Origin: a virus
Taxonomy: Duplodnaviria > Heunggongvirae > Uroviricota > Caudoviricetes
IMG/VR virus record: IMGVR_UViG_2541047938_000002
Length of the DNA: 12,906 nt
Reading direction: 5' to 3' (one strand)
Position numbers and translations under genes: made by a program. Below, piece after piece: positions 1 to 12,619 of this stretch (positions are counted from its first letter, which is position 1; every line of letters starts with the position of its first letter). The notes under the pieces are model-generated. The model did not search any database. It was not told the DNA's origin and was given only the letters and a program-made list of their open reading frames with translations.

Positions 1-1053
1 TTACGGGGTAATGCCAACCGCTGCCGCCACTTTGTCGCCACTTGGCAGCGTTGCCAGAGGATTGAAACGGAGCGCCGTTTCCAGATGATCCGGTGCCAGA
101 TGTGCGTAACGCATAGTCATTTTTATATCGTGGTGTCCGAGAATTTTTTGTAAGGCCAGAATGTTTCCACCCGACATCATGAAGTGCGCCGCAAACGTAT
201 GGCGCAGAACGTGTGTGAGTTGACCGCGAGGGAGCACGATAGACGTTTTTTCCATCACGGATAAAAATTGAAAATAGCAGTCTGTGAAGAAATTGAACCC
301 ATCAAGCGCCATGATCTCTTCGTAAAGCTCTTTACTGATAGGGATGCTTCTGTTTTTCTTCCCCTTCGTTCTTACAAAGGTAATTCGGTATTTGGTCACC
401 TGTGAACGAGTAAGATTTACGGCTTCTCGCCAGCGTGCGCCTGTGCTTAAGCATATCTTAACTACCAGTGCCAGAATTGGGTCCTGACGTTTGCAATCAG
501 CCAGTAATTCAACAATCTGCTCATGGGTAAGCCATGCCATCTCTTTTTCTGCGATGGTGAATTTTCGCATGTTCTCCAGTGGGTTCGGATACGACCATTC
601 GCCCAGGCGGGATAGTTCGCTAAAAACACTACTTAGATAGCTTTGCTCCAGGTTAATGGTGACCGGGCTTGCTCCTTTCTTCCATTTCTCGCTGAAGTAG
701 ATCTCACCTGTCAGGCGTTTATCTCGATAGTGGGCAAACATTTTAGAGGTTAGATCAGTTGCAAGGGGATTGCCCAGAGCGTCAACCATCAGCAGCAATT
801 TGTCATAGACATGCTGCCCAGCAGTCAGTGATTTACCATGTAGTTTGAACCATAGCTCAACCACGTCTTTCAGTGTTCGACGATCCACTGATTCACCTAG
901 CCAGGGCTTTGCTTCGGTTTCTTCCATCGTGTGACGCTCAAAAGCCAGTGCTTCGCCTTTGGTGGCGAATTGTTTACGCACACGACGCCCACTACGTCCG
1001 GCGGGGTAACATTCGCAAAGCCATTTTCCTGTGGTGAGTTTTCGTACAGCCAT
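1..1053 (-). CDS. int: Tyrosine integrase, P2/186 family (350 aa)
   Basis: Track ORF 1..1131(-). Best start is ATG 1053-1051, preceded by GGAGGG (1067-1062); the upstream 26 codons of the track ORF have no support. Tyrosine-recombinase signatures are present (GARWREA, LRHTFAAHF, MTMRYAHL) and the N-terminus MAVRKLTTGKW resembles P2 Int. The stop codon is bases 3-1, so the CDS ends at the window edge. Confidence 0.9.
   Translation of the reverse strand: MAVRKLTTGKWLCECYPAGRSGRRVRKQFATKGEALAFERHTMEETEAKPWLGESVDRRTLKDVVELWFKLHGKSLTAGQHVYDKLLLMVDALGNPLATDLTSKMFAHYRDKRLTGEIYFSEKWKKGASPVTINLEQSYLSSVFSELSRLGEWSYPNPLENMRKFTIAEKEMAWLTHEQIVELLADCKRQDPILALVVKICLSTGARWREAVNLTRSQVTKYRITFVRTKGKKNRSIPISKELYEEIMALDGFNFFTDCYFQFLSVMEKTSIVLPRGQLTHVLRHTFAAHFMMSGGNILALQKILGHHDIKMTMRYAHLAPDHLETALRFNPLATLPSGDKVAAAVGITP
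19..40. repeat. Candidate attL core (left copy of direct repeat CGCTGCCGCCAYTTTGTCGCCA)
   Basis: 22-bp stretch inside the 3' end of int, identical at 21/22 positions to 10052-10073 immediately after the ogr stop (C at 30 versus T at 10063). The positions match the P2 ogr-attP-int topology. Confidence 0.55.
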
Positions 1054-1078
1054 AAAAAATGCCCTCCAATAGAGAGCA

Positions 1079-1106
1079 TTTTTACTGTATGTATAACCAG
1101 TGTCAA
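1079..1106 (-). promoter_or_regulatory. Candidate sigma70 promoter for int with an overlapping LexA-like SOS box
   Basis: On the minus strand: -35 TTGACA (1106-1101), 16-bp spacer, -10 TAAAAA (1084-1079), then the int RBS and ATG about 25 bp downstream. The plus-strand 20-mer TACTGTATGTATAACCAGTG (1083-1102) fits CTG-N10-CAG with an AT-rich spacer and sits in the promoter spacer. Confidence 0.4.
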
Positions 1107-1241
1107 TGTATGAAATCCTGCGACCATACATCTCACTGAAGCCATAATGAAGTAGGCTATTCTTTTTGCTATGTGATCATGTAACTTTTGCGGTTAACCT
1201 GTGGCTCATTTTTATTTTAGGCGCAGATATAAAAGCAAAAG

Positions 1242-1433
1242 TTATCGTGAGTTTTTAGTACAGATTTTTTTGGATTTACTAATAGTTCCATCATTGCAAA
1301 CGAATTTGCCATCAGAGGTACAGTGAGAAACACCTCCCTTTTTCCCTGAGCAGGGATAATTTCTAGCATAGGTAGCTAGTGGGTTTAATAACAAAGAACA
1401 TGACAAAACCACAAAAAATACCTTACCAAGCAT
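1242..1433 (-). CDS. Small secreted, cysteine-containing basic protein (63 aa), hypothetical; possible lysogenic-conversion moron
   Basis: ATG 1433-1431 with SD GGGAGG 5 nt upstream, starting 18 nt after the cI stop. N-terminal signal-peptide-like segment [23 protein letters not shown]; predicted mature part about 40 aa with 4 Cys and many Lys. AT-rich by eye. Confidence 0.55.
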
Positions 1434-1448
1434 AATTTCCTCCCGGTA

Positions 1449-2018
1449 CTATTTAACATACTTGACTGTTAAACTTATAATTTTACCAATTATTTCAATG
1501 TCTTCTATCTTACATTCAAAGGCTCTGTTTCCACCCTCGACGAAGATTCTTCCACCGGGTAAACGAGTAATGTCACGGATCGTTATTTCGCCATCAATAC
1601 TTATTACCCATTTACCATCACGTATATCATCAAATTCCTTATCACAAATAAATTCAGAATTATTATCTGTGATTACAAAAAGATTCTTGAATGCCGACGG
1701 TAGAAATTCTCTATCGAAAATATAAAAACCGTCTTCACACAAGGCCCCATCAGATAATACATATTTAGCAACTTCCATAGTATTTGTATTACCTGAAGTT
1801 TGCTTTGAACCATGCCCGGTTGTGAGCCAATTAAGCGAGGTGCCTGTTTCAAGGGCGCACTGGATTACCCATTCTGCTGGGAATGAGTCACGCATGTAGC
1901 GTGTGGCGAGTGTACTTTTAGAGATTCCTAAATGATCGCACAACGCCTGTCGAGTCTTGAATCCATAAGCTTCTACCATGCGCTCTATGGCGCCTCGTCC
2001 GCCTTTCTCCAAATTCAT
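1449..2018 (-). CDS. cI: CI immunity repressor, phage 186 type (189 aa)
   Basis: Track ORF 1449..2024(-); preferred start ATG 2018-2016 with GGAG 5 nt upstream. N-terminal HTH-like region (GFKTRQALCDHLGISKSTLATRYMR) and overall resemblance to 186 CI. Divergent from the apl-cII operon, as in 186. Confidence 0.85.
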   Translation of the reverse strand: MNLEKGGRGAIERMVEAYGFKTRQALCDHLGISKSTLATRYMRDSFPAEWVIQCALETGTSLNWLTTGHGSKQTSGNTNTMEVAKYVLSDGALCEDGFYIFDREFLPSAFKNLFVITDNNSEFICDKEFDDIRDGKWVISIDGEITIRDITRLPGGRIFVEGGNRAFECKIEDIEIIGKIISLTVKYVK

Positions 2019-2029
2019 GGTCACTCCAA

Positions 2030-2083
2030 GTGAACTTTTATCTTGACGATTTCACCGTGCGATCGTATGTTTATGGTGTTCAC
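2030..2083 (+). promoter_or_regulatory. Candidate early rightward promoter (pR-like) flanked by an inverted repeat, possible CI operator half-sites
   Basis: -35 TTGACG (2043-2048), 17-bp spacer, -10 TATGTT (2066-2071) upstream of apl. GTGAAC (2030-2035) and GTTCAC (2078-2083) form an inverted repeat bracketing the promoter. Operator assignment is inference. Confidence 0.35.
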
Positions 2084-2143
2084 AAAATACAAACGATCCG
2101 TATTCGTCCTGATTAATCATCATTAAACGAGGAATGTTGCATC

Positions 2144-2365
2144 ATGAGACCTAACATTTCAATCACTCTTACCACGCCTCATGTGACTATTGAACGCTAT
2201 AGCGAGCTGACAGGGCTATCCATCGATACCATCAATGACATGTTGGCTGATGGACGCCTTATCCGTCACCGTCTGCGCAAAGATAAAAAACGCGAAAAAG
2301 TGATGATCAACATAGCAGCAATGACCGTTGATGCGCTTTCAGAATGCAATCTAAACCTTAATTAG
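2144..2365 (+). CDS. apl: Apl/Cox-family excisionase and transcriptional regulator (73 aa)
   Basis: First gene of the rightward operon, divergent from cI. HTH-like segment [25 protein letters not shown]; GAGG about 11 nt upstream of the ATG. Assigned by position and size. Confidence 0.6.
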
Positions 2366-2397
2366 TTCGATTCTGAAATACATCAGAGGCATTGACC

Positions 2398-2907
2398 ATG
2401 TTTGATTACCAAGTTTCCAAACATCCACATTTTGATGAAGCCTGTCGTGCATTTGCACTGCGCCACAATCTGGTGCAACTGGCAGAACGTGCAGGCATGA
2501 ATGTGCAGATTCTGCGGAACAAGCTGAACCCAGCTCAGCCTCATTTATTAACCGCACCAGAAATCTGGCTGCTTACCGATCTGACTGAAGATTCAACGCT
2601 GGTAGATGGTTTTCTGGCACAGATTCATTGTCTGCCATGTGTACCGATTAATGAGGTGGCAAAAGAGAAACTGCCACATTACGTCATGAGTGCAACCGCA
2701 GAGATCGGGCGTGTTGCTGCAGGTGCGGTGTCTGGCGATGTAAAAACCTGTGCCGGTCGTCGTGATGCTATCAGCAGCATTAACTCTGTAACACGACTGA
2801 TGGCGCTGGCGGCTGTTTCATTGCAGGCCCGTTTACAGGCTAATCCTGCGATGGCGAGTGCAGTTGATACCGTGACTGGCCTCGGTGCTTCATTTGGTTT
2901 GCTGTGA
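2398..2907 (+). CDS. cII: CII lysogeny-establishment activator, 186 type (169 aa)
   Basis: Track ORF 2392..2907; ATG 2398 with AGAGG 8 nt upstream. [19 protein letters not shown]... closely resembles 186 CII as I recall it. Confidence 0.85.
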
Positions 2908-2914
2908 GGTGCTT

Positions 2915-3115
2915 ATGCTGACGAAAGAACCATCATTTGCATCGCTGCTGGTTAAACAAAGCCCGGCAATGCATTACGGTCACGGCTGGATCATGGGGGA
3001 GGATGGTAAACGCTGGCATCCGTGCCGTTCACAAGATGAATTGCTGGCAGAACTATCTACGAAAAAACGGGGGAACAAATGGCTATTGAAGGCACTGCGG
3101 CGACTGTTCCATTAA
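2915..3115 (+). CDS. Hypothetical small early protein (66 aa)
   Basis: ATG 2915 with GAGG 5 nt upstream, overlapping the cII stop. Sits where 186 carries small early genes; no family recognised from sequence. Confidence 0.45.
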   Translation: MLTKEPSFASLLVKQSPAMHYGHGWIMGEDGKRWHPCRSQDELLAELSTKKRGNKWLLKALRRLFH

Positions 3116-3420
3116 GCCCCGGTGAACGCCTGAATGGACTTAATCACATTGCGGAGTTAAGGGCGAAAGTTTTTGGCCTGAATATTGAGTCAGAGCTTGA
3201 GCGGTTTATTAAAGATATGCGTGATTCACGGGATATTAATAGCGAACAAAATAAACGGGCACTGGCTGCCATATTCTTTATGGCAAAAATTCCAGCTGAA
3301 CGTCATAGCATCAGCATTAATGAGCTGACCACTGACGAAAAGCGGGAGTTGATTAAAGCAATGAATCATTTTCGTGCAGTGGTGAGCTTATTTCCCAGAC
3401 GGCTAACCATGCCGAATTAA
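3079..3420 (+). CDS. Hypothetical early protein (113 aa)
   Basis: ATG 3079 with GGGGGA SD; overlaps the preceding ORF by 37 nt in another frame. No family recognised. Confidence 0.5.
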   Translation: MAIEGTAATVPLSPGERLNGLNHIAELRAKVFGLNIESELERFIKDMRDSRDINSEQNKRALAAIFFMAKIPAERHSISINELTTDEKRELIKAMNHFRAVVSLFPRRLTMPN

Positions 3421-3487
3421 CCAACTAATGAAATTAATGGCGTAAACCCGCCGGGCATCCCTTTATCTAAATTCAGGAGAATTGATT

Positions 3488-3721
3488 ATGCGTAATATTG
3501 AAACCCTCTCGACCAAAACCGGACCGGATGACGCAGGGCTTAATATTTTACTGACAGAGGCTCGTCTGGAAGAACGCCGGGCAAGGGCTGAAGCAATGGC
3601 AGCTCGCCTTGATAGCCTGGCGTGTCATATCACATCCCGCCAGCTAACCCACGTCGAAGCGGCAGAACTGCTTCGTGTGACTGCTGAAGCAATCCAGAAC
3701 GAAGCGCAGGAGATCCACTAA
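3488..3721 (+). CDS. Hypothetical early protein (77 aa)
   Basis: ATG 3488 with AGGAGA 7 nt upstream (the track begins at TTG 3482). Its stop overlaps the next start (TAATG). Confidence 0.55.
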   Translation: MRNIETLSTKTGPDDAGLNILLTEARLEERRARAEAMAARLDSLACHITSRQLTHVEAAELLRVTAEAIQNEAQEIH

Positions 3722-3948
3722 TGGCTGATGCAATGGATCTCGTACAGCAGCGCGTTGAAGAAGAACGCCAACGCCATATCCGTGCTGCCCGTGCCAAAAC
3801 GCCGGGCGTGTCCCGCGTGCTTTGCATTGAGTGTGAAGCGCCAATTCCGCCAGCACGCCGCCGTGCCATTCCGGGTGTGCAGCTTTGCATTACCTGTCAG
3901 GAAATCGCAGAGCTGAAAGGCAAACATTACAACGGAGGTGCTGTATGA
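3721..3948 (+). CDS. TraR/DksA-family C4 zinc-finger protein (75 aa)
   Basis: C-x2-C-x17-C-x2-C motif (CIECEAPIPPARRRAIPGVQLCITC); start and stop coupled to neighbouring genes. Common in P2-family early operons. Confidence 0.75.
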   Translation: MADAMDLVQQRVEEERQRHIRAARAKTPGVSRVLCIECEAPIPPARRRAIPGVQLCITCQEIAELKGKHYNGGAV

Positions 3949-4802
3949 GCACCATCCTGAAATGGGCGGGAAATAAAACTGCCATAATGTCCGAACTGAA
4001 AAAACATCTTCCTGCTGGCCCGCGACTGGTTGAACCTTTCGCGGGTTCCTGTGCTGTGATGATGGAGACGGATTATCCCAGCTATCTGGTTGCGGATATT
4101 AATCCTGATTTAATCAACCTCTATAAAAAGGTTGCCGCTGATTGTGAATCGTTTATATCTCGCGCCAGAGTTTTATTTGAGAACGCAAACAGGGAGGTGG
4201 CTTATTACAACATAAGGCAGGAGTTTAATTACTCAACTGAAATTACTGATTTCATGAAAGCGGTATATTTCCTGTATCTCAATCGTCACGGTTACCGTGG
4301 TTTATGTCGCTATAACAAGAGCGGGCATTTCAACATTCCCTACGGTAATTATAAAAATCCGTATTTCCCTGAAAAAGAAATTCGCGCATTTGCAGAAAAG
4401 GCCCAGCGAGCAACGTTTATCTGCGCCAGCTTTGATGAAACGCTGGCGATGTTGAAGGCGGGGGATGTGGTGTATTGCGATCCGCCGTATGACGGTACGT
4501 TTTCCGGCTATCACACTGACGGCTTCACTGAAGATGACCAGTATCACCTGGCATCTGTTCTTGAACATCGGTCATCAGAAGGACATCCGGTCATTGTTTC
4601 TAACAGTGACACATCCCTGATCCGTTCGCTGTATCGCAATTTTACTCACCACTACATCAAGGCAAAACGCAGCATCGGTGTGGCAGCTGGCGAGGGTAAA
4701 TCAGCAACAGAAATCATTGCTGTTTCCGGGCCGCGCTGCTGGGTGGGATTTGATTATTCGCGTGGCGTGGATAGTTCTGCCGTGTACGGAGTACGTGCAT
4801 GA
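3945..4802 (+). CDS. dam: DNA adenine methyltransferase, Dam family (285 aa)
   Basis: Track ORF starts at 3885; preferred ATG 3945 ([11 protein letters not shown]) with GGAGG 6 nt upstream. Has the SAM-binding LKWAGNK motif and the catalytic DPPY motif; strong resemblance to E. coli Dam. Confidence 0.9.
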
Positions 4803-6223
4803 GTCATGCCGATATGAACAACTGCTGCGGCTTTAACGAAGCTGCCGCATCGTTCTCATGGAACAGCTCGAAAAAGGCCATTAACCCTTATCTGGACCCG
4901 GTGGAAGTTGCGCCGGTTTCTACGCTTTCAAACCTGATCACTCTGTACGCTGCCGATAACGAGCAGGAACAGCTGCGCCGTGAGGCGCTGAGTGATCAGG
5001 TCTGGGAGCGTTATTTCTTTAATGAATCCCGTGATCCTGTCCAGCGCGAAATGGAACAGGATAAGCTCATTAGTCGGGCAAAGCTGGCGCATGAGCAGCA
5101 GCGTTTTAATCCGGATATGGTCATTCTGGCGGACGTCAACGCCCAGCCTTCCCATATCAGCAAGCCGCTGATGCAACGTATTGAATACTTCAGCAGCCTG
5201 GGCAGGCCAAAGGCTTATTCCCGCTATTTACGTGAGACGATTAAGCCATGTCTGGAACGACTGGAGCATGTACGCGACAGTCAGCTATCTGCATCTTTTC
5301 GCTTTATGGCAAGCCATGAAGGGCTGGACGGCCTGCTGATCCTGCCTGAAATGAGTCAGGATCAGGTGAAACGCCTGTCCACCCTGGTAGCTGCGCATAT
5401 GAGTATGTGCCTTGATGCCGCTTGTGGCGATTTGTATGCCACCGATGACGTTAAGCCAGAAGAAATCCGCAATACATGGGAAAGGGTGGCAGCGGAAACC
5501 CTGCGTCTGGATGTCATCCCGCCTGCGTTTGAGCAACTCCGTCGGAAAAGAAACCGCCGTAAACCCGTGCCCTATGAACTCATTCCGGGTTCGCTGGCGC
5601 GTATGTTGTGCGCCGACTGGTGGTATCGGAAATTATGGAAGATGCGTTGCGAATGGCGGGAAGAGCAGTTGCGTGCTGTCTGCCTTGTCAGCAAAAAAGC
5701 ATCTCCCTATGTCAGCTATGAAGCCGTGTTGCATAAACGTGAGCAGCGCCGTAAGTCGCTGGAGTTTTTCCGTTCTCATGAACTGGTGAACGAAGACGGC
5801 GACACGCTAGACATGGAGGATGTGGTAAACGCCAGCAGCAGCAACCCTGCGCATCGCCGCAATGAGATGATGGCCTGTGTTAAAGGTCTGGAGCTTATCG
5901 CGGAAATGCGCGGTGACTGCGCCGTTTTCTACACCATCACCTGTCCGTCACGTTTCCATTCCACGCTAAATAACGGCAGGCCCAACCCGACCTGGACAAA
6001 TGCGACGGTAAGACAAAGCAGCGATTATCTGGTCGGTATGTTTGCTGCATTTCGTAAGGCGATGCACAAAGCCGGGTTGCGCTGGTATGGCGTGCGGGTG
6101 TCAGTGTGGTGTTCATGGCACAAACCTACAGCCTTGAATGAAGGCTTTCCCCGCCTGCGGTTTGTGTGGTTGTCGGTACAAATACCGCGCATTGTTTCAC
6201 TGCCCCCATCACCGCAACCATAA
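4799..6223 (+). pseudogene. A: Replication initiation endonuclease A (P2 gpA / 186 A family), apparently truncated with a non-homologous tail
   Basis: ATG 4799 overlaps the dam stop (ATGA), GGAG upstream. Resembles the N-terminal ~430 aa of P2-family A (…ITCPSRFH…RWYGVRV). After about 6100 the frame runs 41 unrelated codons to a stop at 6223, and the HUH region I expect next (…EPHHDGT.HWH…) is absent. Confidence 0.65.
6105..6180 (+). promoter_or_regulatory. Late-promoter region with two TGT-N12-ACA (Ogr/Delta-type) activator boxes upstream of O
   Basis: TGT(6105-6107)-N12-ACA(6120-6122) and TGT(6163-6165)-N12-ACA(6178-6180). The second box is centred about 88 bp upstream of the O start codon, consistent with a -55 activator site for a start site near 6226. 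Confidence 0.45.
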
Positions 6224-6258
6224 GGCTCCAGTAAGTTTTTTCTAACGGAGCACGGCTC

Positions 6259-7086
6259 ATGACAGTGAAAGCAAAGCGTTTTCGCATCGGGGTGGAAGGT
6301 GCCACCACCGACGGACGCGAAATCCAGCGTGAATGGCTGGAACAGATGGCAGCCAGCTACAACCCGGCGGTGTATACCGCGCTGATTAACCTTGAGCACA
6401 TCAAGTCTTATCTGCCGGACAGCACCTTTAACCGCTACGGCAAGGTGACGGCGCTGTTTGCTGAAGAAATCACGGAAGGTCCGCTGGCAGGCAAGATGGC
6501 GCTGTATGCCGACGTTGAGCCAACGGAGTCCCTGGTGGAACTGGTGAAAAAAGGCCAGAAATTATTCACCTCTATGGAAGTCAGCCCGAAGTTCGCTGAT
6601 ACGGGCAAAGCCTACCTGGTCGGCCTGGCTGCTACTGATGACCCTGCCAGTCTGGGTACGGAAATGCTGACATTCAGCGCCAGTGCAGCCCATAACCCGC
6701 TGGCAAACCGCAAGCAGAATCCTGCCAATCTCTTTACCGCTGCAGAGGAAACGGTGATCGAACTGGAAGAAATCCAGGACGACAAACCGTCCCTGTTTGC
6801 CCGCGTCACGGCGCTGTTTACCAAAAAAGAGCAGTCCGATGACGCCCGGTTCTCTGATGTGCATAAGGCCGTGGAGCTGGTCGCCACTGAGCAGCAGAAC
6901 CTGAGTGCACGCACCGAAAAATCCCTGTCTGAGCAGGAAGAACGCCTGTCTGAGCTGGAGACTGCCCTGCAGGCACAGCAAACCGCCTTTAACGAACTGG
7001 TGGACAAGCTGAGTCATGAAGACAGTCGCCAGGACTACCGCCAGCGTGCAACAGGCGGTACCTGCATTTTCATAAATACTTTTTAG
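6259..7086 (+). CDS. O: Capsid scaffold protein gpO (275 aa), C-terminal ~9 residues replaced at a deletion junction
   Basis: ATG 6259 with GGAG 8 nt upstream. FRIGVEG…DGR…INLEH…SMEV.P.FA.TGK.YLVGLAATDDPASLGTE… resembles P2 gpO. Similarity is lost after …ATGG (about 7059) and the frame ends TCIFINTF. Confidence 0.8.
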   Translation: MTVKAKRFRIGVEGATTDGREIQREWLEQMAASYNPAVYTALINLEHIKSYLPDSTFNRYGKVTALFAEEITEGPLAGKMALYADVEPTESLVELVKKGQKLFTSMEVSPKFADTGKAYLVGLAATDDPASLGTEMLTFSASAAHNPLANRKQNPANLFTAAEETVIELEEIQDDKPSLFARVTALFTKKEQSDDARFSDVHKAVELVATEQQNLSARTEKSLSEQEERLSELETALQAQQTAFNELVDKLSHEDSRQDYRQRATGGTCIFINTF

Positions 7087-7295
7087 CTCATCAGCGTAGA
7101 ACGCATTTTCTTTTGCAGAATAAAACATATTAATCACCATCCAATCGCGAAAACTCTAAAGCCACCGTAGCCAGCACATGTAATTTGAGTTTTTGTCATA
7201 CCAGTGTAATACGTTCTACCAACAGCCAAATTATATGCAGTTGTAGAACTCAAATCAGCAGCCCCAGTTGATACATCACTAAATAACGGAATCAT
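7060..7295 (-). pseudogene. Remnant of a tail-fibre gene 3' end plus the 5' end of a tail-fibre assembly (Tfa) gene, inverted relative to the other late genes
   Basis: Minus-strand ORF 7295..7134 (…AGYGGFRVFAIGW*) whose TGA overlaps ATG 7140 of a second reading frame, MVINMFYSAKENAFYADELKSIYENAG, in the ATGGTGA arrangement typical of fibre/tfa pairs. That N-terminus matches the conserved start of Tfa proteins as I recall it. The frame becomes antisense O after about 26 codons. Confidence 0.5.
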
Positions 7296-8163
7296 GCACT
7301 CATTTGGGAATGCAATAGGGAAACCCATCACCGCATTTCTCGGTGGCGTGGTGGAAGGATTCAAAGCGGCGGCAGGTCCCATCAGTGCTGCATTCGAACC
7401 ACTTAAGCCTGTGTTTCAGTGGATTGGCGACAAAGTACAGGCGCTGTGGGGCTGGTTTACTGATCTGCTGACGCCCGTTAAGTCGACCTCTGCCGAACTG
7501 CAGAGTGCAGCGGCAATGGGGCGACGATTCGGGGAGGCACTGGCGGAAGGGCTGAATATGGTCATGCATCCGCTGGACTCCCTGAAATCCGGCGTTTCCT
7601 GGTTGCTGGAGAAGCTCGGCATTGTCAGTAAAGAGGCCGCAAAGGCAAAACTGCCGGAAAGCGTGACGCGTCAGCAACCTGCGACGGTGAATGCAGACGG
7701 TAAAGTGATGATGCCATTGGGTGGTTTTCCATCATGGGGATATGGCTTTGCGGGGATGTATGACAGCGGCGGGTATATCCCGCGCGGGCAGTTTGGCATC
7801 GTCGGTGAAAACGGGCCGGAAATTGTTAACGGCCCGGCAAATGTGACCAGCCGGAGAAATACCGCTGCACTGGCTGCCGTTGTTGCCGGAATGATGGGCG
7901 TTGCTGCCGCGCCTGCAGAGCTTCCACCGTTGCACCCTTTGGCACTTCCCGCGAAAGGCGGCGAAGCGATGGTGAGTCGTGCAGCCACTGTGCCGCCCGT
8001 TCAACGGATTGAGGCACCGATGCAGATCATCATTCAGACGCAGCCAGGACAAAGTGCGCAGGATATTGCGCGGGAGGTGGCCCGCCAGCTTGATGAACGT
8101 GAACGCAGGCTGAAAGCAAAAGCCAGGAGTAACTACAGCGATCAGGGGGGATACGACGCATGA
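7294..8163 (+). pseudogene. T: Tail tape-measure protein (gpT family), C-terminal ~289 aa only
   Basis: The frame opens at ATG 7294 exactly at the junction with the inverted fibre fragment. Contains GIVGENGPE and Gly/Ala-rich segments typical of P2-family tape-measure C-termini; these proteins are about 800 aa. Stop overlaps the U start (ATGA). Confidence 0.7.
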
Positions 8164-8645
8164 TGATGGTGCTGGGATTGTACGTGTTTATGCTGCGCAC
8201 CGTGCCGTATCAGGAGCTGCAGTATCAACGCAGCTGGCGACATGCGGCAAACAGCCGGGTAAACCGACGTCCGTCCACGCAGTTTCTGGGACCGGACAAC
8301 GACATGCTGACGCTTTCCGGTGTTCTTATGCCGGAGATAACAGGTGGCAGGCTGTCGTTGCTGGCACTGGAGCAGATGGCAGAACAGGGGAAAGCATGGC
8401 CCCTGATTGAAGGCAGCGGCACGATTTATGGCATGTATGTGATTGAGGGACTGAATCAGACTAAAACGGAGTTTTTCCGCGACGGTATGCCGCGCCGGAT
8501 TGAGTTCACCCTGTCGCTCAAACGGGTGGATGAATCCCTGTCCGATATGTTCGGTGATCTCAGTGCGCAACTGAATAATCTGCAGGAAACGGCAACGTCT
8601 GCCTTAAGCGATATCAGTAAAACGGTGGGAGGGCTGCTGTCGTGA
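8160..8645 (+). CDS. U: Tail protein gpU (161 aa)
   Basis: ATG 8160 with G-rich SD. Position between T and D and resemblance to P2 gpU; stop overlaps the D start (GTGA). Confidence 0.8.
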   Translation: MMMVLGLYVFMLRTVPYQELQYQRSWRHAANSRVNRRPSTQFLGPDNDMLTLSGVLMPEITGGRLSLLALEQMAEQGKAWPLIEGSGTIYGMYVIEGLNQTKTEFFRDGMPRRIEFTLSLKRVDESLSDMFGDLSAQLNNLQETATSALSDISKTVGGLLS

Positions 8646-9742
8646 ATTTCAGCTCTGAACTGCTTAACAAAGGCAACAAAACTCCCGCATTCAGCATCAG
8701 TATTGAGGGCAGGGATATCACCACTGTGCTGGATAACCGCCTGATGAGTTTGACGCTGACGGATAACCGGGGCTTTGAAGCGGACCAGCTTGATCTGGAG
8801 CTGGATGACGCTGACGGAAAAATCGTGCTGCCGCGCCGTGGTGCGGTCATTACGCTGGCGCTGGGCTGGAAGGGGCAGCCGCTTTTCCCTAAAGGGGCAT
8901 TCACAGTGGACGAGATTGAACACACTGGCGCACCGGACCGCCTGACTATCCGGGCGCGAAGTGCTGATTTTCGGGAAACGCTGAATACCCGCCGTGAAAA
9001 ATCGTGGCATAAGACCACCGTCGGGGAAGTGGTGAAGGAAATAGCCGCGCGGCACAAGCTGAAGATGGCACTGGGTAAAGACCTGTCGGATAAGCCCGTG
9101 GAGCATATAGACCAGACTAATGAGAGTGACGGCAGTTTTCTGATGCGGCTGGCGAGACAGTACGGTGCCATCGCGTCGGTGAAAAATGGCAATCTGTTAT
9201 TCATCCGGCAGGGGCAGGGCAAAAGCGCCACTGGTAAACCTCTGCCAGTGATCACTATCACACGTAAGGACGGCGACAGTCACCGCTTTACCCTGGCGGA
9301 TCGCGGAGCTTACACGGGTGTAATTGCCAGCTGGTTGCATACCCGCGAACCCGCGAAGAAAGAAAGCACCACGGTGAAGCGTAAGCGCAGGACTAAGAAG
9401 CAGAAGAAAGAGCCGGAAGCGAAGCAGGGCGATTACCTGGTGGGGACGGATGAAAACGTGCTGGTACTTAATCGCACCTATGCTAATCGGAGTAACGCCG
9501 AACGGGCAGCGAAAATGCAGTGGGAACGCCTGCAACGCGGTGTTGCGTCATTCTCGCTACAACTGGCGGAAGGTCGGGCGGATCTCTACACGGAAATGCC
9601 TGTGAAGGTCAGCGGCTTTAAACAGCCGATAGATGATGCGGAATGGACCATTACCACCCTGACACATACCGTCAGCCCGGATAACGGTTTTACGACCAGT
9701 ATGGAGCTTGAAGTGAGGATTGATGATTTCGAAATGGAATGA
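8642..9742 (+). CDS. D: Tail protein gpD / late control protein D (366 aa)
   Basis: GTG 8642 with GGTGGGAGGG SD. Position immediately upstream of ogr and resemblance to P2 gpD. Confidence 0.8.
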   Translation: MNFSSELLNKGNKTPAFSISIEGRDITTVLDNRLMSLTLTDNRGFEADQLDLELDDADGKIVLPRRGAVITLALGWKGQPLFPKGAFTVDEIEHTGAPDRLTIRARSADFRETLNTRREKSWHKTTVGEVVKEIAARHKLKMALGKDLSDKPVEHIDQTNESDGSFLMRLARQYGAIASVKNGNLLFIRQGQGKSATGKPLPVITITRKDGDSHRFTLADRGAYTGVIASWLHTREPAKKESTTVKRKRRTKKQKKEPEAKQGDYLVGTDENVLVLNRTYANRSNAERAAKMQWERLQRGVASFSLQLAEGRADLYTEMPVKVSGFKQPIDDAEWTITTLTHTVSPDNGFTTSMELEVRIDDFEME

Positions 9743-9832
9743 TTCTTCGCAATGGAGAACTTTTAAGTTTGCAAAATGGAATAATACGGTATCATTGTTG
9801 TGAATTTAGCAAAAATGGGGAGAACTCGAAAA

Positions 9833-10051
9833 ATGATGATTTGCCCACTGTGTGGAAGTGCCGCCCATACTCGCAGCAGTTTTCAGGTATCTTCATTGAC
9901 CAAAGAGCGTTACAACCAGTGCCAGAACATTAACTGCAGCCATACTTTTGTTACCCATGAAACTTTTGTTCGTTCGATTGCAACGCCAAAAGAGTCAAAT
10001 CCGGTTCAGCCGCATCCAATGAAATCAGGACAGGTGGCGCTCTCTCTTTGA
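9833..10051 (+). CDS. ogr: Ogr/Delta-family zinc-finger late transcription activator (72 aa)
   Basis: Track ORF 9800..10051; preferred ATG 9833 (MMICPLCGSAAH…) giving 72 aa, as in P2 Ogr. Zinc-finger motif C-x2-C-x22-C-x4-C; GGGGAGA about 10 nt upstream. Confidence 0.9.
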   Translation: MMICPLCGSAAHTRSSFQVSSLTKERYNQCQNINCSHTFVTHETFVRSIATPKESNPVQPHPMKSGQVALSL

Positions 10052-10286: not shown

Positions 10287-11972
10287 TTATCCTAATCCTG
10301 GCCATACCATGACGATGATTGTCCCTGCCAGCGTCAGCAGGACGTTGGCGATTGCATAGGTGCCCGCATAGCCCAGCGCCGGGATGTTACTGCGAGCTGT
10401 ATCACTGATGATCTCCATTGCCGGCGCGCAGGTACGTGCGCCCATCATTGCGCCGAACAACAGCGCGCGGTTCATTCGCAATACATAAGCACCGAACAAG
10501 AAACAGATAACCACGGGCACCAGACTGACAATCAATCCGGCAATCAACATCTGACCGCCAATCGCGCCCAGGCCGTTATTAATACCGCTACCGGCGCTCA
10601 GACCAACGCCTGCCATAAACACCATCAAGCCGAACTCTTTCACCATGCTTAATGCACCCTGCGGAATGTAACCGAAGGTCGGGTGGTTAGCACGCATAAA
10701 GCCCAGCATAATTCCGGCGAATAACAACCCGGCAGCGTTCCCCATGCCGAAACTGAATGTGCTGAACTGGAAGGTGATCATCCCGATCATCAGCCCAATA
10801 ACAAAGAAGGCGCAGAATGCCAGCAGGTCAGTGACCTGGCTGTGAATCGAGATAAAGCCGATGCGATCGGCGATGGTTTTTACGCGGCGGGCATCGCCGC
10901 TGACTTGTAAAACGTCACCTTTGTTAAGCACGACGTTGTCATCTATCGGCATCTCAATCTGGCTACGAATGACGCGGTTAAGGAAGCAACCGTGATCGGT
11001 CAACTTCAGTTGTGCGAGACGTTTACCTACAGCGTTATGGTTTTTAACGACCACTTCTTCAGTGACGATACGCATGTCGAGAAGGTCACGATCGAAAACT
11101 TCTTTACCGTTACGGAAGCTGGGATCGAGTCGGGCATGGGCGTCGGGATAGCCTACCAACGCTATTTCATCGCCCATTTGTAGCACGGCATCACCGTCTG
11201 GATTTGCCAGAATCCCGTTACGTCGAATACGTTCAATGTAGCAGCCGGTTTGTCGATAAATACCCAGTTCACGCAGATTTTTGCCGTCGGTCCAGGCCAC
11301 CAGTTCCGGGCCGACGCGATAGGCGCGGATCACCGGTAAATAAACCTTACGGTTGGCATCAGTGTCCAGGCCACGTTCGCGGGCGATTTGCTGGGCGCTG
11401 GTCTGTAAGTCCTGATGCTGCAATTTCGGCAAGTAACGCGCACCAACAATCAAACTCACCAGACCGATTAAATAGGTTAAGGCATACCCGAGGCTCAGAT
11501 TATCCAGTGCCAGTGAGAGCTGCCTGCTTTCCATGCCGGAATGACGCAGTGTATCGCCAGCACCGACCAGAACCGGTGTCGACGTCATAGAGCCTGCTAA
11601 CATACCGGCCGTCAGGCCAATATCCCAGCCAAACAGCTTACCTAACCCTAAGGCGATCACCAGCGCACTGCCAACCATCACCAGTGCTAACATTAGGTAA
11701 TTTTTCCCATCGCGAAAAAAAATGGAAAAAAAGTTCGGTCCGGCTTCGACCCCGACGCAGAAAATAAACAGCATAAAGCCAAGATTAAGCGCATCGGTGT
11801 TAATGCTGAAATGTTGTTGGCCTAATAACAGCGATACGACTAAAACGCCAATGGAATTACCCAGTTGGATCGAACCAAGTCGTAACTTTCCGAGACATAG
11901 CCCAAGCGCGAGGACCACAAATAATAACAGAATGTAATTCCCATTTAACAATTCGGCGACGTTTATATTCAC
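10287..11972 (-). CDS. ybjL: Putative AAE-family transporter YbjL (561 aa)
   Basis: Full-length ORF whose sequence ([24 protein letters not shown]…) I recognise as E. coli YbjL; GTG start at 11972; neighbours ybjM and grxA as in E. coli. Confidence 0.9.
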
Positions 11973-12241: not shown

Positions 12242-12619
12242 GTGAAACATAAACAACGTTGGGCGGGGGCAATCTGCTGTTTTGTCCTCTTCATTGTGGT
12301 GTGCCTTTTTCTGGCGACGCACATGAAAGGCGCTTTTCGGGCTGCCGGGCATCCTGAAATCGGCTTGCTATTTTTCATTCTTCCTGGAGCAGTCGCCAGC
12401 TTCTTTTCACAGCGTAGAGAAGTCCTGAAACCTCTGTTTGGCGCAATGCTGGCGGCACCCTGTTCGATGCTCATTATGCGGCTGTTTTTTTCACCGACGC
12501 GCTCATTCTGGCAAGAGCTGGCATGGTTACTAAGCGCGGTGTTCTGGTGTGCGCTGGGGGCACTGTGTTTCTTATTTATCAGTAGTTTGTTTAAACCACA
12601 GCACAGAAAAAATCAGTAA
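12242..12619 (+). CDS. ybjM: Inner-membrane protein YbjM (125 aa)
   Basis: GTG 12242 with AGGAGGA SD; hydrophobic multi-pass sequence; divergent from ybjL and convergent with grxA, as in E. coli. Confidence 0.85.
   Translation: MKHKQRWAGAICCFVLFIVVCLFLATHMKGAFRAAGHPEIGLLFFILPGAVASFFSQRREVLKPLFGAMLAAPCSMLIMRLFFSPTRSFWQELAWLLSAVFWCALGALCFLFISSLFKPQHRKNQ

Follow-up and report, generated by a model that had tools for sequence, protein, structure and literature searches.

The 12,906-nt stretch of DNA in IMG/VR virus record IMGVR_UViG_2541047938_000002 (here called the window) is, to judge from its sequence, a decayed P2/186-type prophage of the Peduoviridae, nearest to Elveevirus and Wadgaonvirus. 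It was identified by BLAST against the intact phage Cartapus (NC_070909), by comparison with Escherichia coli chromosomes, and by Pfam. The region in question is the linker at 6101-6258, between what remains of the replication gene A (A') and of the scaffold/protease gene O (O'). With a probability of about 0.9, we read it as the ordinary divergent late-promoter region of such a prophage, with a leftward terminase promoter (PP) and a rightward promoter for O (PO). A 13-nt sequence within it resembles the P2-family cohesive-end site (cos). As part of the same reading, this 13-mer would have no packaging role, the true cos would have been lost in a deletion, and the resemblance would be a chance extension of a 9- to 10-nt promoter block conserved in the clade. 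A first-pass annotation of this DNA had proposed that the linker might retain a cos and that a helper could then package the element. This was not borne out. The linker is 100% identical to the region between P and O (the P-O region) of intact relatives, which have their cos between A and the portal gene Q. That annotation had named beforehand what would speak against a cos, and this is what we found: the linker aligns end to end with a P-O region, cos is elsewhere, and the similarity to cos does not extend past 13 nt.

Positions 6093-6600 are 100% identical to Escherichia phage 500465-1 over the start of P, the intergenic region, and O. The end of the terminase coding sequence and the start of the scaffold coding sequence annotated in 500465-1 fall on bases equivalent to those in the window. 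Cartapus is also close (97.7% identity by BLAST between window 6093-7058 and Cartapus 3646-4611). The edge of this homology was located from overlapping BLAST segments and by comparing the window with both A and P of Cartapus. Homology to A stops at 6100, and homology to the P-O region of intact phages starts at 6093. The 8 nt that belong to both (TGCGGGTG, 6093-6100) are common to A and to codons 6 to 8 of P. This is a deletion junction with microhomology. A microhomology-mediated deletion joined the linker to the truncated A; lost with it were the accessory genes, the true cos, Q, P beyond its first eight codons, and A over its 3' half. The A'-P' junction was found in none of 5,426 complete E. 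coli genomes.

The 158-bp linker is not wholly intergenic. The P-O intergenic region is 142 nt long and occupies 6117-6258. Ahead of it are the junction and a relic of the terminase large-subunit gene P at 6093-6116, which encodes its first eight codons (MNTTLTPA; minus strand, ATG at 6116-6114). This N terminus is conserved in 40 species-level relatives that we drew from GTDB genomes, with O identities of 59 to 99%.

The location of the true cos is clear from these and other relatives. In P2-like phages, gpA and gpQ border the cos-proximal region (PMC9122126). Cartapus has a putative cos annotated at nt 1-59; its core is GGCGTGGCGGGGATACGAG, and CGCGCG comes next. SEN8 has the same 19-mer annotated at nt 1-19. 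The core plus CGCGCG is in the A-Q interval of Cartapus, SEN8, RE-2010, and two Klebsiella phages. The left flank is also conserved in Cartapus, RE-2010, and the two Klebsiella phages; the SEN8 record begins at the core. A true cos core is present on the O strand, 3.1 to 6.5 kb upstream of O, in 40/40 species-level relatives. In a second set, of 80 IMG/VR relatives, it is visible upstream on the O-coding strand in 64, and 77 have the exact 13-mer in P-O (counted by reading through the listing). The intact phages 500465-1 and Cartapus have the same 13-mer in P-O. The prophages of E. coli 1223 and NCTC9041 have both the 13-mer in P-O and a true cos (locus positions 9855 and 7520, respectively). 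In both, cos falls within the part that the window lacks, between the positions equivalent to 6100 and 6093.

The 13-mer, AGGCGGGGAAAGC, occurs once in the window, on the minus strand at 6156-6144. It is identical to nt 5-17 of the annotated P2 cosL (NC_001895, nt 1-19, GGCGAGGCGGGGAAAGCAC), and P4 starts with the same 19 nt. The P2/P4 cohesive-end sequence that the first-pass annotation had given was correct by both records. Its 13-nt match to the center of this G-rich core stands for P2 and P4; 186 starts with GGCGTGGCGGGGAAAGCAT, and there the match is 12 nt. It had also suspected that the 13-mer is in the opposite orientation, relative to O, to a real cos, and it was right; true cores are on the O strand.

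One alternative is that the 13-mer still functions as a cos, whether retained or degenerate, and is cut by the terminase of a P2/186/P4-type helper that would package the ~10-kb remnant, as happens with P4. We consider the probability of this close to negligible. An exact 13-nt match to the center of the P2/P4 cohesive end is rare by chance, and the element is about the size of P4, which are both in its favor. However, over the full 19-mer the window reads CCGCAGGCGGGGAAAGCCT, with six mismatches to the P2 and 186 cores. These occupy all six outer positions and include both nick positions. A search of the window for the P2, 186, and clade cos 19-mers that allowed up to six mismatches found no site with five or fewer. 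The left flank of cos (...AAAGCGGGC-) and the right flank (CGCGCG) are also missing at the 13-mer, and the clade left flank was absent from the whole window at up to six mismatches. When 64 nt of the cos regions were compared in register, the window had 12/51 identities to P2 outside the 13-mer, which is the level expected by chance. The same comparison to P2 gave 40/51 for P4, 39/51 for 186, and 36/51 for Cartapus. A BLAST search of the window with 220- to 260-nt cos regions from P2, P4, 186, and Cartapus returned only the 13-mer and chance matches that were equally good. According to a passage in PMC3931495 that cites Ziermann and Calendar (1990), a conserved cos region of 55 bp is needed for packaging.

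Other evidence against a functional cos comes from the relatives. The intact phages that share the identical sequence have their cos elsewhere, and the orientation relative to O is reversed. The clade's own core ends ...GGGGATACGAG, not ...GGGGAAAGCAC, and the Cartapus/SEN8 type of cos has only 8 nt in common with the 13-mer site. Across the 40 species-level relatives, the longest P-O match to P2 cos reached 13 nt in 1 and 10 nt in 11; it was 9 nt in another 7 and no more than 8 nt in the other 21. The cos resemblance in P-O decays with distance and fades to nothing, while the true cos persists in all of these relatives. Moreover, the remnant lacks the C-terminal half of A and would not be expected to replicate. 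The site has none of the features of a P2-family cos, namely a 19-nt cohesive-end core with the invariant GGCGNGGCGGGG in its 5' part, conserved flanks, and a location between A and Q with the core on the O strand. A 13-nt core match is insufficient to call a P2-family cos; flanks, A-Q position, and orientation must fit as well.

We also asked how readily such a match arises. On its own, the match is unusual. When sequences were shuffled with their dinucleotides preserved, 0.6% of shuffled windows and 0.005% of shuffled copies of the 166-nt region had an exact 13-mer in common with the P2/186 cos 19-mers. Host DNA at 12310-12323 (the ybjM-grxA region) matches the left flank of 186 cos perfectly over 14 nt, so matches of the 13-mer's size do arise by chance. 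We suggest that in the Escherichia lineage two lineage-specific bases stretched a 9- to 10-nt resemblance to P2 cos to 13 nt.

What, then, is the linker? The first-pass annotation had taken it for the divergent late-promoter region between P and O, with TGT-N12-ACA boxes at 6105-6122 (box 1) and 6163-6180 (box 2), and a pattern search of the window recovered both boxes. The window has 4 matches to this pattern, against 3.6 expected over 12.9 kb, and two of them fall within these 158 nt, which is a local enrichment. The suggestion that both are Ogr-type boxes for the divergent promoters held for box 2, which was present in the same place in 40/40 species-level and 80/80 IMG/VR relatives. It probably does not hold for box 1, which has the strict pattern in only 11/40 species-level relatives.

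Box 2, with its center at 6171.5, appears to be a single Ogr/B-type activator site shared by PP and PO. We compared the window with Cartapus, SEN8, RE-2010, the two Klebsiella phages, P2, and 186 in an alignment of their P-O regions. The alignment has five conserved blocks, arranged symmetrically about the dyad at 6163-6180. Box 2 lines up with the activator site annotated in P2 and with the B-protein site of 186. The assignment of the linker to the P-O divergent late-promoter region was upheld. Equivalent boxes are upstream of V and FI in Cartapus. The element also encodes the cognate zinc-finger activator, in an ogr-type gene at 9833-10051 on the plus strand (Pfam Ogr_Delta, E = 7e-22; open reading frame, 9800-10051), and its counterpart is annotated as ogr/Delta-like in E. 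coli relatives. An activator of this type would bind 6163-6180 and activate both promoters from about -55.

The arrangement is like that of P2 PP/PO and 186 p12/pV, which occupy the same position between the terminase and scaffold genes. Here too there is one TGT-N12-(A/C)CA dyad, which lines up with the annotated sites of P2 (3057-3087) and 186 (3798-3817). Both predicted promoters are ~55 nt from the dyad center, and an Ogr/Delta-type activator is encoded by the element. The P2 dyad (TGT-N12-CCA, 3063-3080) is centered at 3071.5, and each of the two mapped transcription starts (3016 and 3127) is exactly 55.5 nt away. The intergenic region is shorter here, at 142 nt, than in P2 (173 nt) and 186 (165 nt). 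The late-promoter feature is already known in kind, and its sequence is identical to that of deposited phages.

The P2 spacing allowed us to predict both transcription starts. For PO, 6171.5 + 55.5 = 6227, just 3' of a conserved CAACCA. The putative core promoter, on the plus strand at 6192-6220, is formed by blocks conserved in the alignment: TTGTTT (6192-6197), a 17-nt spacer, and CAACCA (6215-6220). A CAAC(C/A)(A/T) hexamer is in the same register after the dyads that precede V and FI in Cartapus (PV and PF). The first-pass annotation had expected a start for O near 6226, and this fits both the geometry and the hexamer. PO would start near 6227 and would still drive O'.

For PP, 6171.5 - 55.5 = 6116, which is the A of the P ATG. 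In 39/40 species-level relatives, the box center and the P ATG are separated by exactly 55.5 nt, and the exception has an extra in-frame ATG upstream. In the window, the candidate -10 hexamer is TAGGTT on the minus strand at 6123-6128, which is -12 to -7 if +1 is the A of the ATG, and it aligns with the P2/186 PP -10 hexamer TAGCCT. A TA(T/G)NNT hexamer is conserved at -12 to -7 in the 40 relatives, and a Shine-Dalgarno sequence is lacking. P2 and 186 have a 22-nt P leader with a GAGG Shine-Dalgarno sequence, but both are absent here, so PP probably starts at the P ATG. We propose that PP starts at the A of the ATG (6116) or directly beside it; in the remnant it would now read only into antisense A'.

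The terminase mRNA of this clade is predicted to be leaderless, like the annotated V start of P2. The P2 record puts the V start at the first base of the V coding sequence, and P2 PV has the same 55.5 nt from site center to the A of the ATG. Cartapus V shares this geometry, as does P in the 39 relatives. The difference is that here the geometry seems to apply to the terminase operon, where P2 and 186 have a leader. It might interest P2 specialists that a large clade in the Enterobacterales appears to have a leaderless terminase operon with its promoter at a fixed 55.5 nt from the shared site.

In this frame, the 13-mer (6144-6156, minus strand) is at -29 to -41 of the predicted PP. It is part of a conserved block, CTTTCCCCG(G/C)CT (6145-6156), at -30 to -41. 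With the predicted start, the -35 position is occupied by GGGAAA (6151-6146), and 17 nt separate it from TAGGTT. In more distant relatives, all that is left at this position is RGAAAG. P2 and 186 have GCGAAT there, and their PP -35 region is unlike CTTTCCCCG(G/C)CT. Our preferred reading of the 13-mer is that it forms the -35-region block of PP, the terminase promoter.

Some points weigh against our interpretation of the linker. The rarity of the 13-nt match (0.6% of shuffled windows) makes coincidence uncomfortable as a sole explanation. GGGAAA, in the -35 position of PP, differs from the (T/C)TGTTT at PO and PF, and the block is conserved over 12 nt, which exceeds what a -35 hexamer needs. 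In addition, the cos sites of Cartapus and SEN8 are annotated only as putative.

Another alternative is that CTTTCCCCG(G/C)CT is an operator for a phage protein, such as a terminase subunit feeding back on PP. The resemblance to the P2/P4 cos core would then reflect shared protein recognition, not coincidence. The 12-nt conservation extends over several genera, the cos match is statistically unusual, and the block is between the divergent starts, in presumably untranscribed space where only protein binding can matter. However, we looked for covariation of the P-O block with each phage's own cos and found none. Phages with the block have a cos without AAAG, whereas P2 and 186 have a cos with AAAG and no block in P-O. 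The block retains AAAG, which is variable among cos sites, and its majority form, AGCCGGGGAAAG, loses the cos-invariant GGCGNGGCGGGG and shares only CGGGG with the invariant core. Furthermore, the RGAAAG kept by distant relatives fits a promoter element. We therefore find an operator very unlikely. The specific version in which the block is more than a -35 element, and a late phage protein such as a terminase subunit recognizes its G-rich, cos-like core to exert feedback on a leaderless terminase mRNA, seems extremely unlikely.

Other elements were considered in this region. A small hairpin at 6130-6146 was considered as a leader or terminator element and rejected; it coincides with the PP spacer, and its conservation does not extend to SEN8, RE2010, or the Klebsiella phages. 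A sigma-70 consensus scan found no promoter, which is expected for activator-dependent promoters and is uninformative. Rfam had no RNA family for 5800-6600 at E ≤ 1.

Box 1 is probably fortuitous. It overlaps the P start codon and the -10/+1 region of PP, and its center would be at about +2.5 of the predicted PP, over the ATG and codons 1 to 4. Even with a relaxed pattern (CCA), it was found in only 22/40 species-level relatives, and its spacing shifts with codon insertions and deletions. Its partial conservation can be attributed to coding and -10 constraints. Nevertheless, box 1 could be a second functional Ogr/B site that, for example, damps PP or loops with box 2. It matches TGT-N12-ACA, it resembles box 2 (TGTGGTG...GGCACAA), and its right arm pairs with the left arm of box 2 as an 8-bp inverted repeat. 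Two boxes in 158 nt also exceed expectation. However, besides the position of box 1 over the P start, its low conservation, and its altered spacing, a second site is at odds with P2, 186, and Smp131, in which a single site is shared by both promoters (PMC3931495). We consider a second functional site unlikely.

The arms of the inverted repeat, CACAAACC/GGTTTGTG, are at 6119-6126 and 6159-6166. They bracket the 13-mer and are partly conserved in relatives. When the intergenic region was folded as single-stranded DNA, modest z-scores of -2.3 and -3.1 were obtained, which derive from the dyad and this repeat.

As it stands, the remnant still has ogr, the shared activator site, the predicted PO, and an O that is nearly complete. 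Most structural genes are gone, as are cos, Q, P, and the C-terminal part of A. Because no cos is recognizable, a cos-dependent helper would have no means to package the remnant, and we regard it as an inert deletion relic, not a hidden helper-packageable element. A P4-like satellite was also considered. Its small size (~10 kb from int to ogr) and its Delta/Ogr-family activator gene are reminiscent of such satellites, but they bear a cos, whereas the remnant has none. Its gene content follows that of a P2/186-type phage in the same order (int, CI, CII, fil, dam, A', O', T', U, D, ogr), with no room for the P4 genes psu, sid, and alpha (primase), or for delta. A satellite was ruled out for these reasons.

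Collinearity with P2/186-type phage genes extends over 1-10051, except for the int/CI region (1-2394) and a tail-fiber relic (7059-7318). The remnant begins with an integrase gene (1-1131, minus strand) and a CI repressor gene (1449-2024, minus strand), which were assigned by Pfam; this region diverges from Cartapus and matches the prophage at the same site in E. coli 1223. Next, at 2144-4802, are cox/apl-like, CII, fil, DUF5347, DUF2732, TraR/DksA, and dam genes. A' follows on the plus strand at 4799-6100. It matches Pfam Phage_GPA at profile positions 1-243 of 321, and its BLAST homology to Cartapus A (29247-31661) stops at Cartapus position 30548. The A' open reading frame continues across the junction to a stop at 6223. 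O', on the plus strand at 6259-7058, has a Shine-Dalgarno sequence (GGAG, 6247-6250), matches Pfam Phage_GPO (E = 1e-112), and aligns by BLAST with Cartapus 3812-4611. It is native up to 7058, and its open reading frame ends at 7086 after nine foreign codons. Beyond the relic, 7319-10051 has the 3' end of the tape-measure gene T (T') and then U, D, and ogr. Host genes start at 10287, and comparison with E. coli chromosomes placed the insertion site next to ybjL-ybjM-grxA.

The relic at 7059-7318, between O' and T', is 260 nt long and AT rich. It had no match in the phage collection, but it is ~92% identical to a junction between tail-fiber and tail-fiber-assembly genes in other E. coli prophages. 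It is a second relic and implies two or more additional deletions.

In 500465-1, SEN8, RE-2010, and further relatives, including E. coli NCTC9041, the accessory genes that surround the true cos in the A-Q interval differ from one relative to the next. They encode TIR-domain, HNH, AIPR, ATPase plus RloB, KAP NTPase plus DprA, DUF4145, and TIGR02391 proteins, which fits a cos-adjacent defense hotspot (PMC9122126). The window has lost this hotspot entirely. The same prophage is present at ybjL in E. coli 1223 and NCTC9041, decayed differently. Both keep A, cos, Q, and P, and each has its own O-to-T deletion. The prophage at the ybjL locus seems to decay independently and repeatedly.

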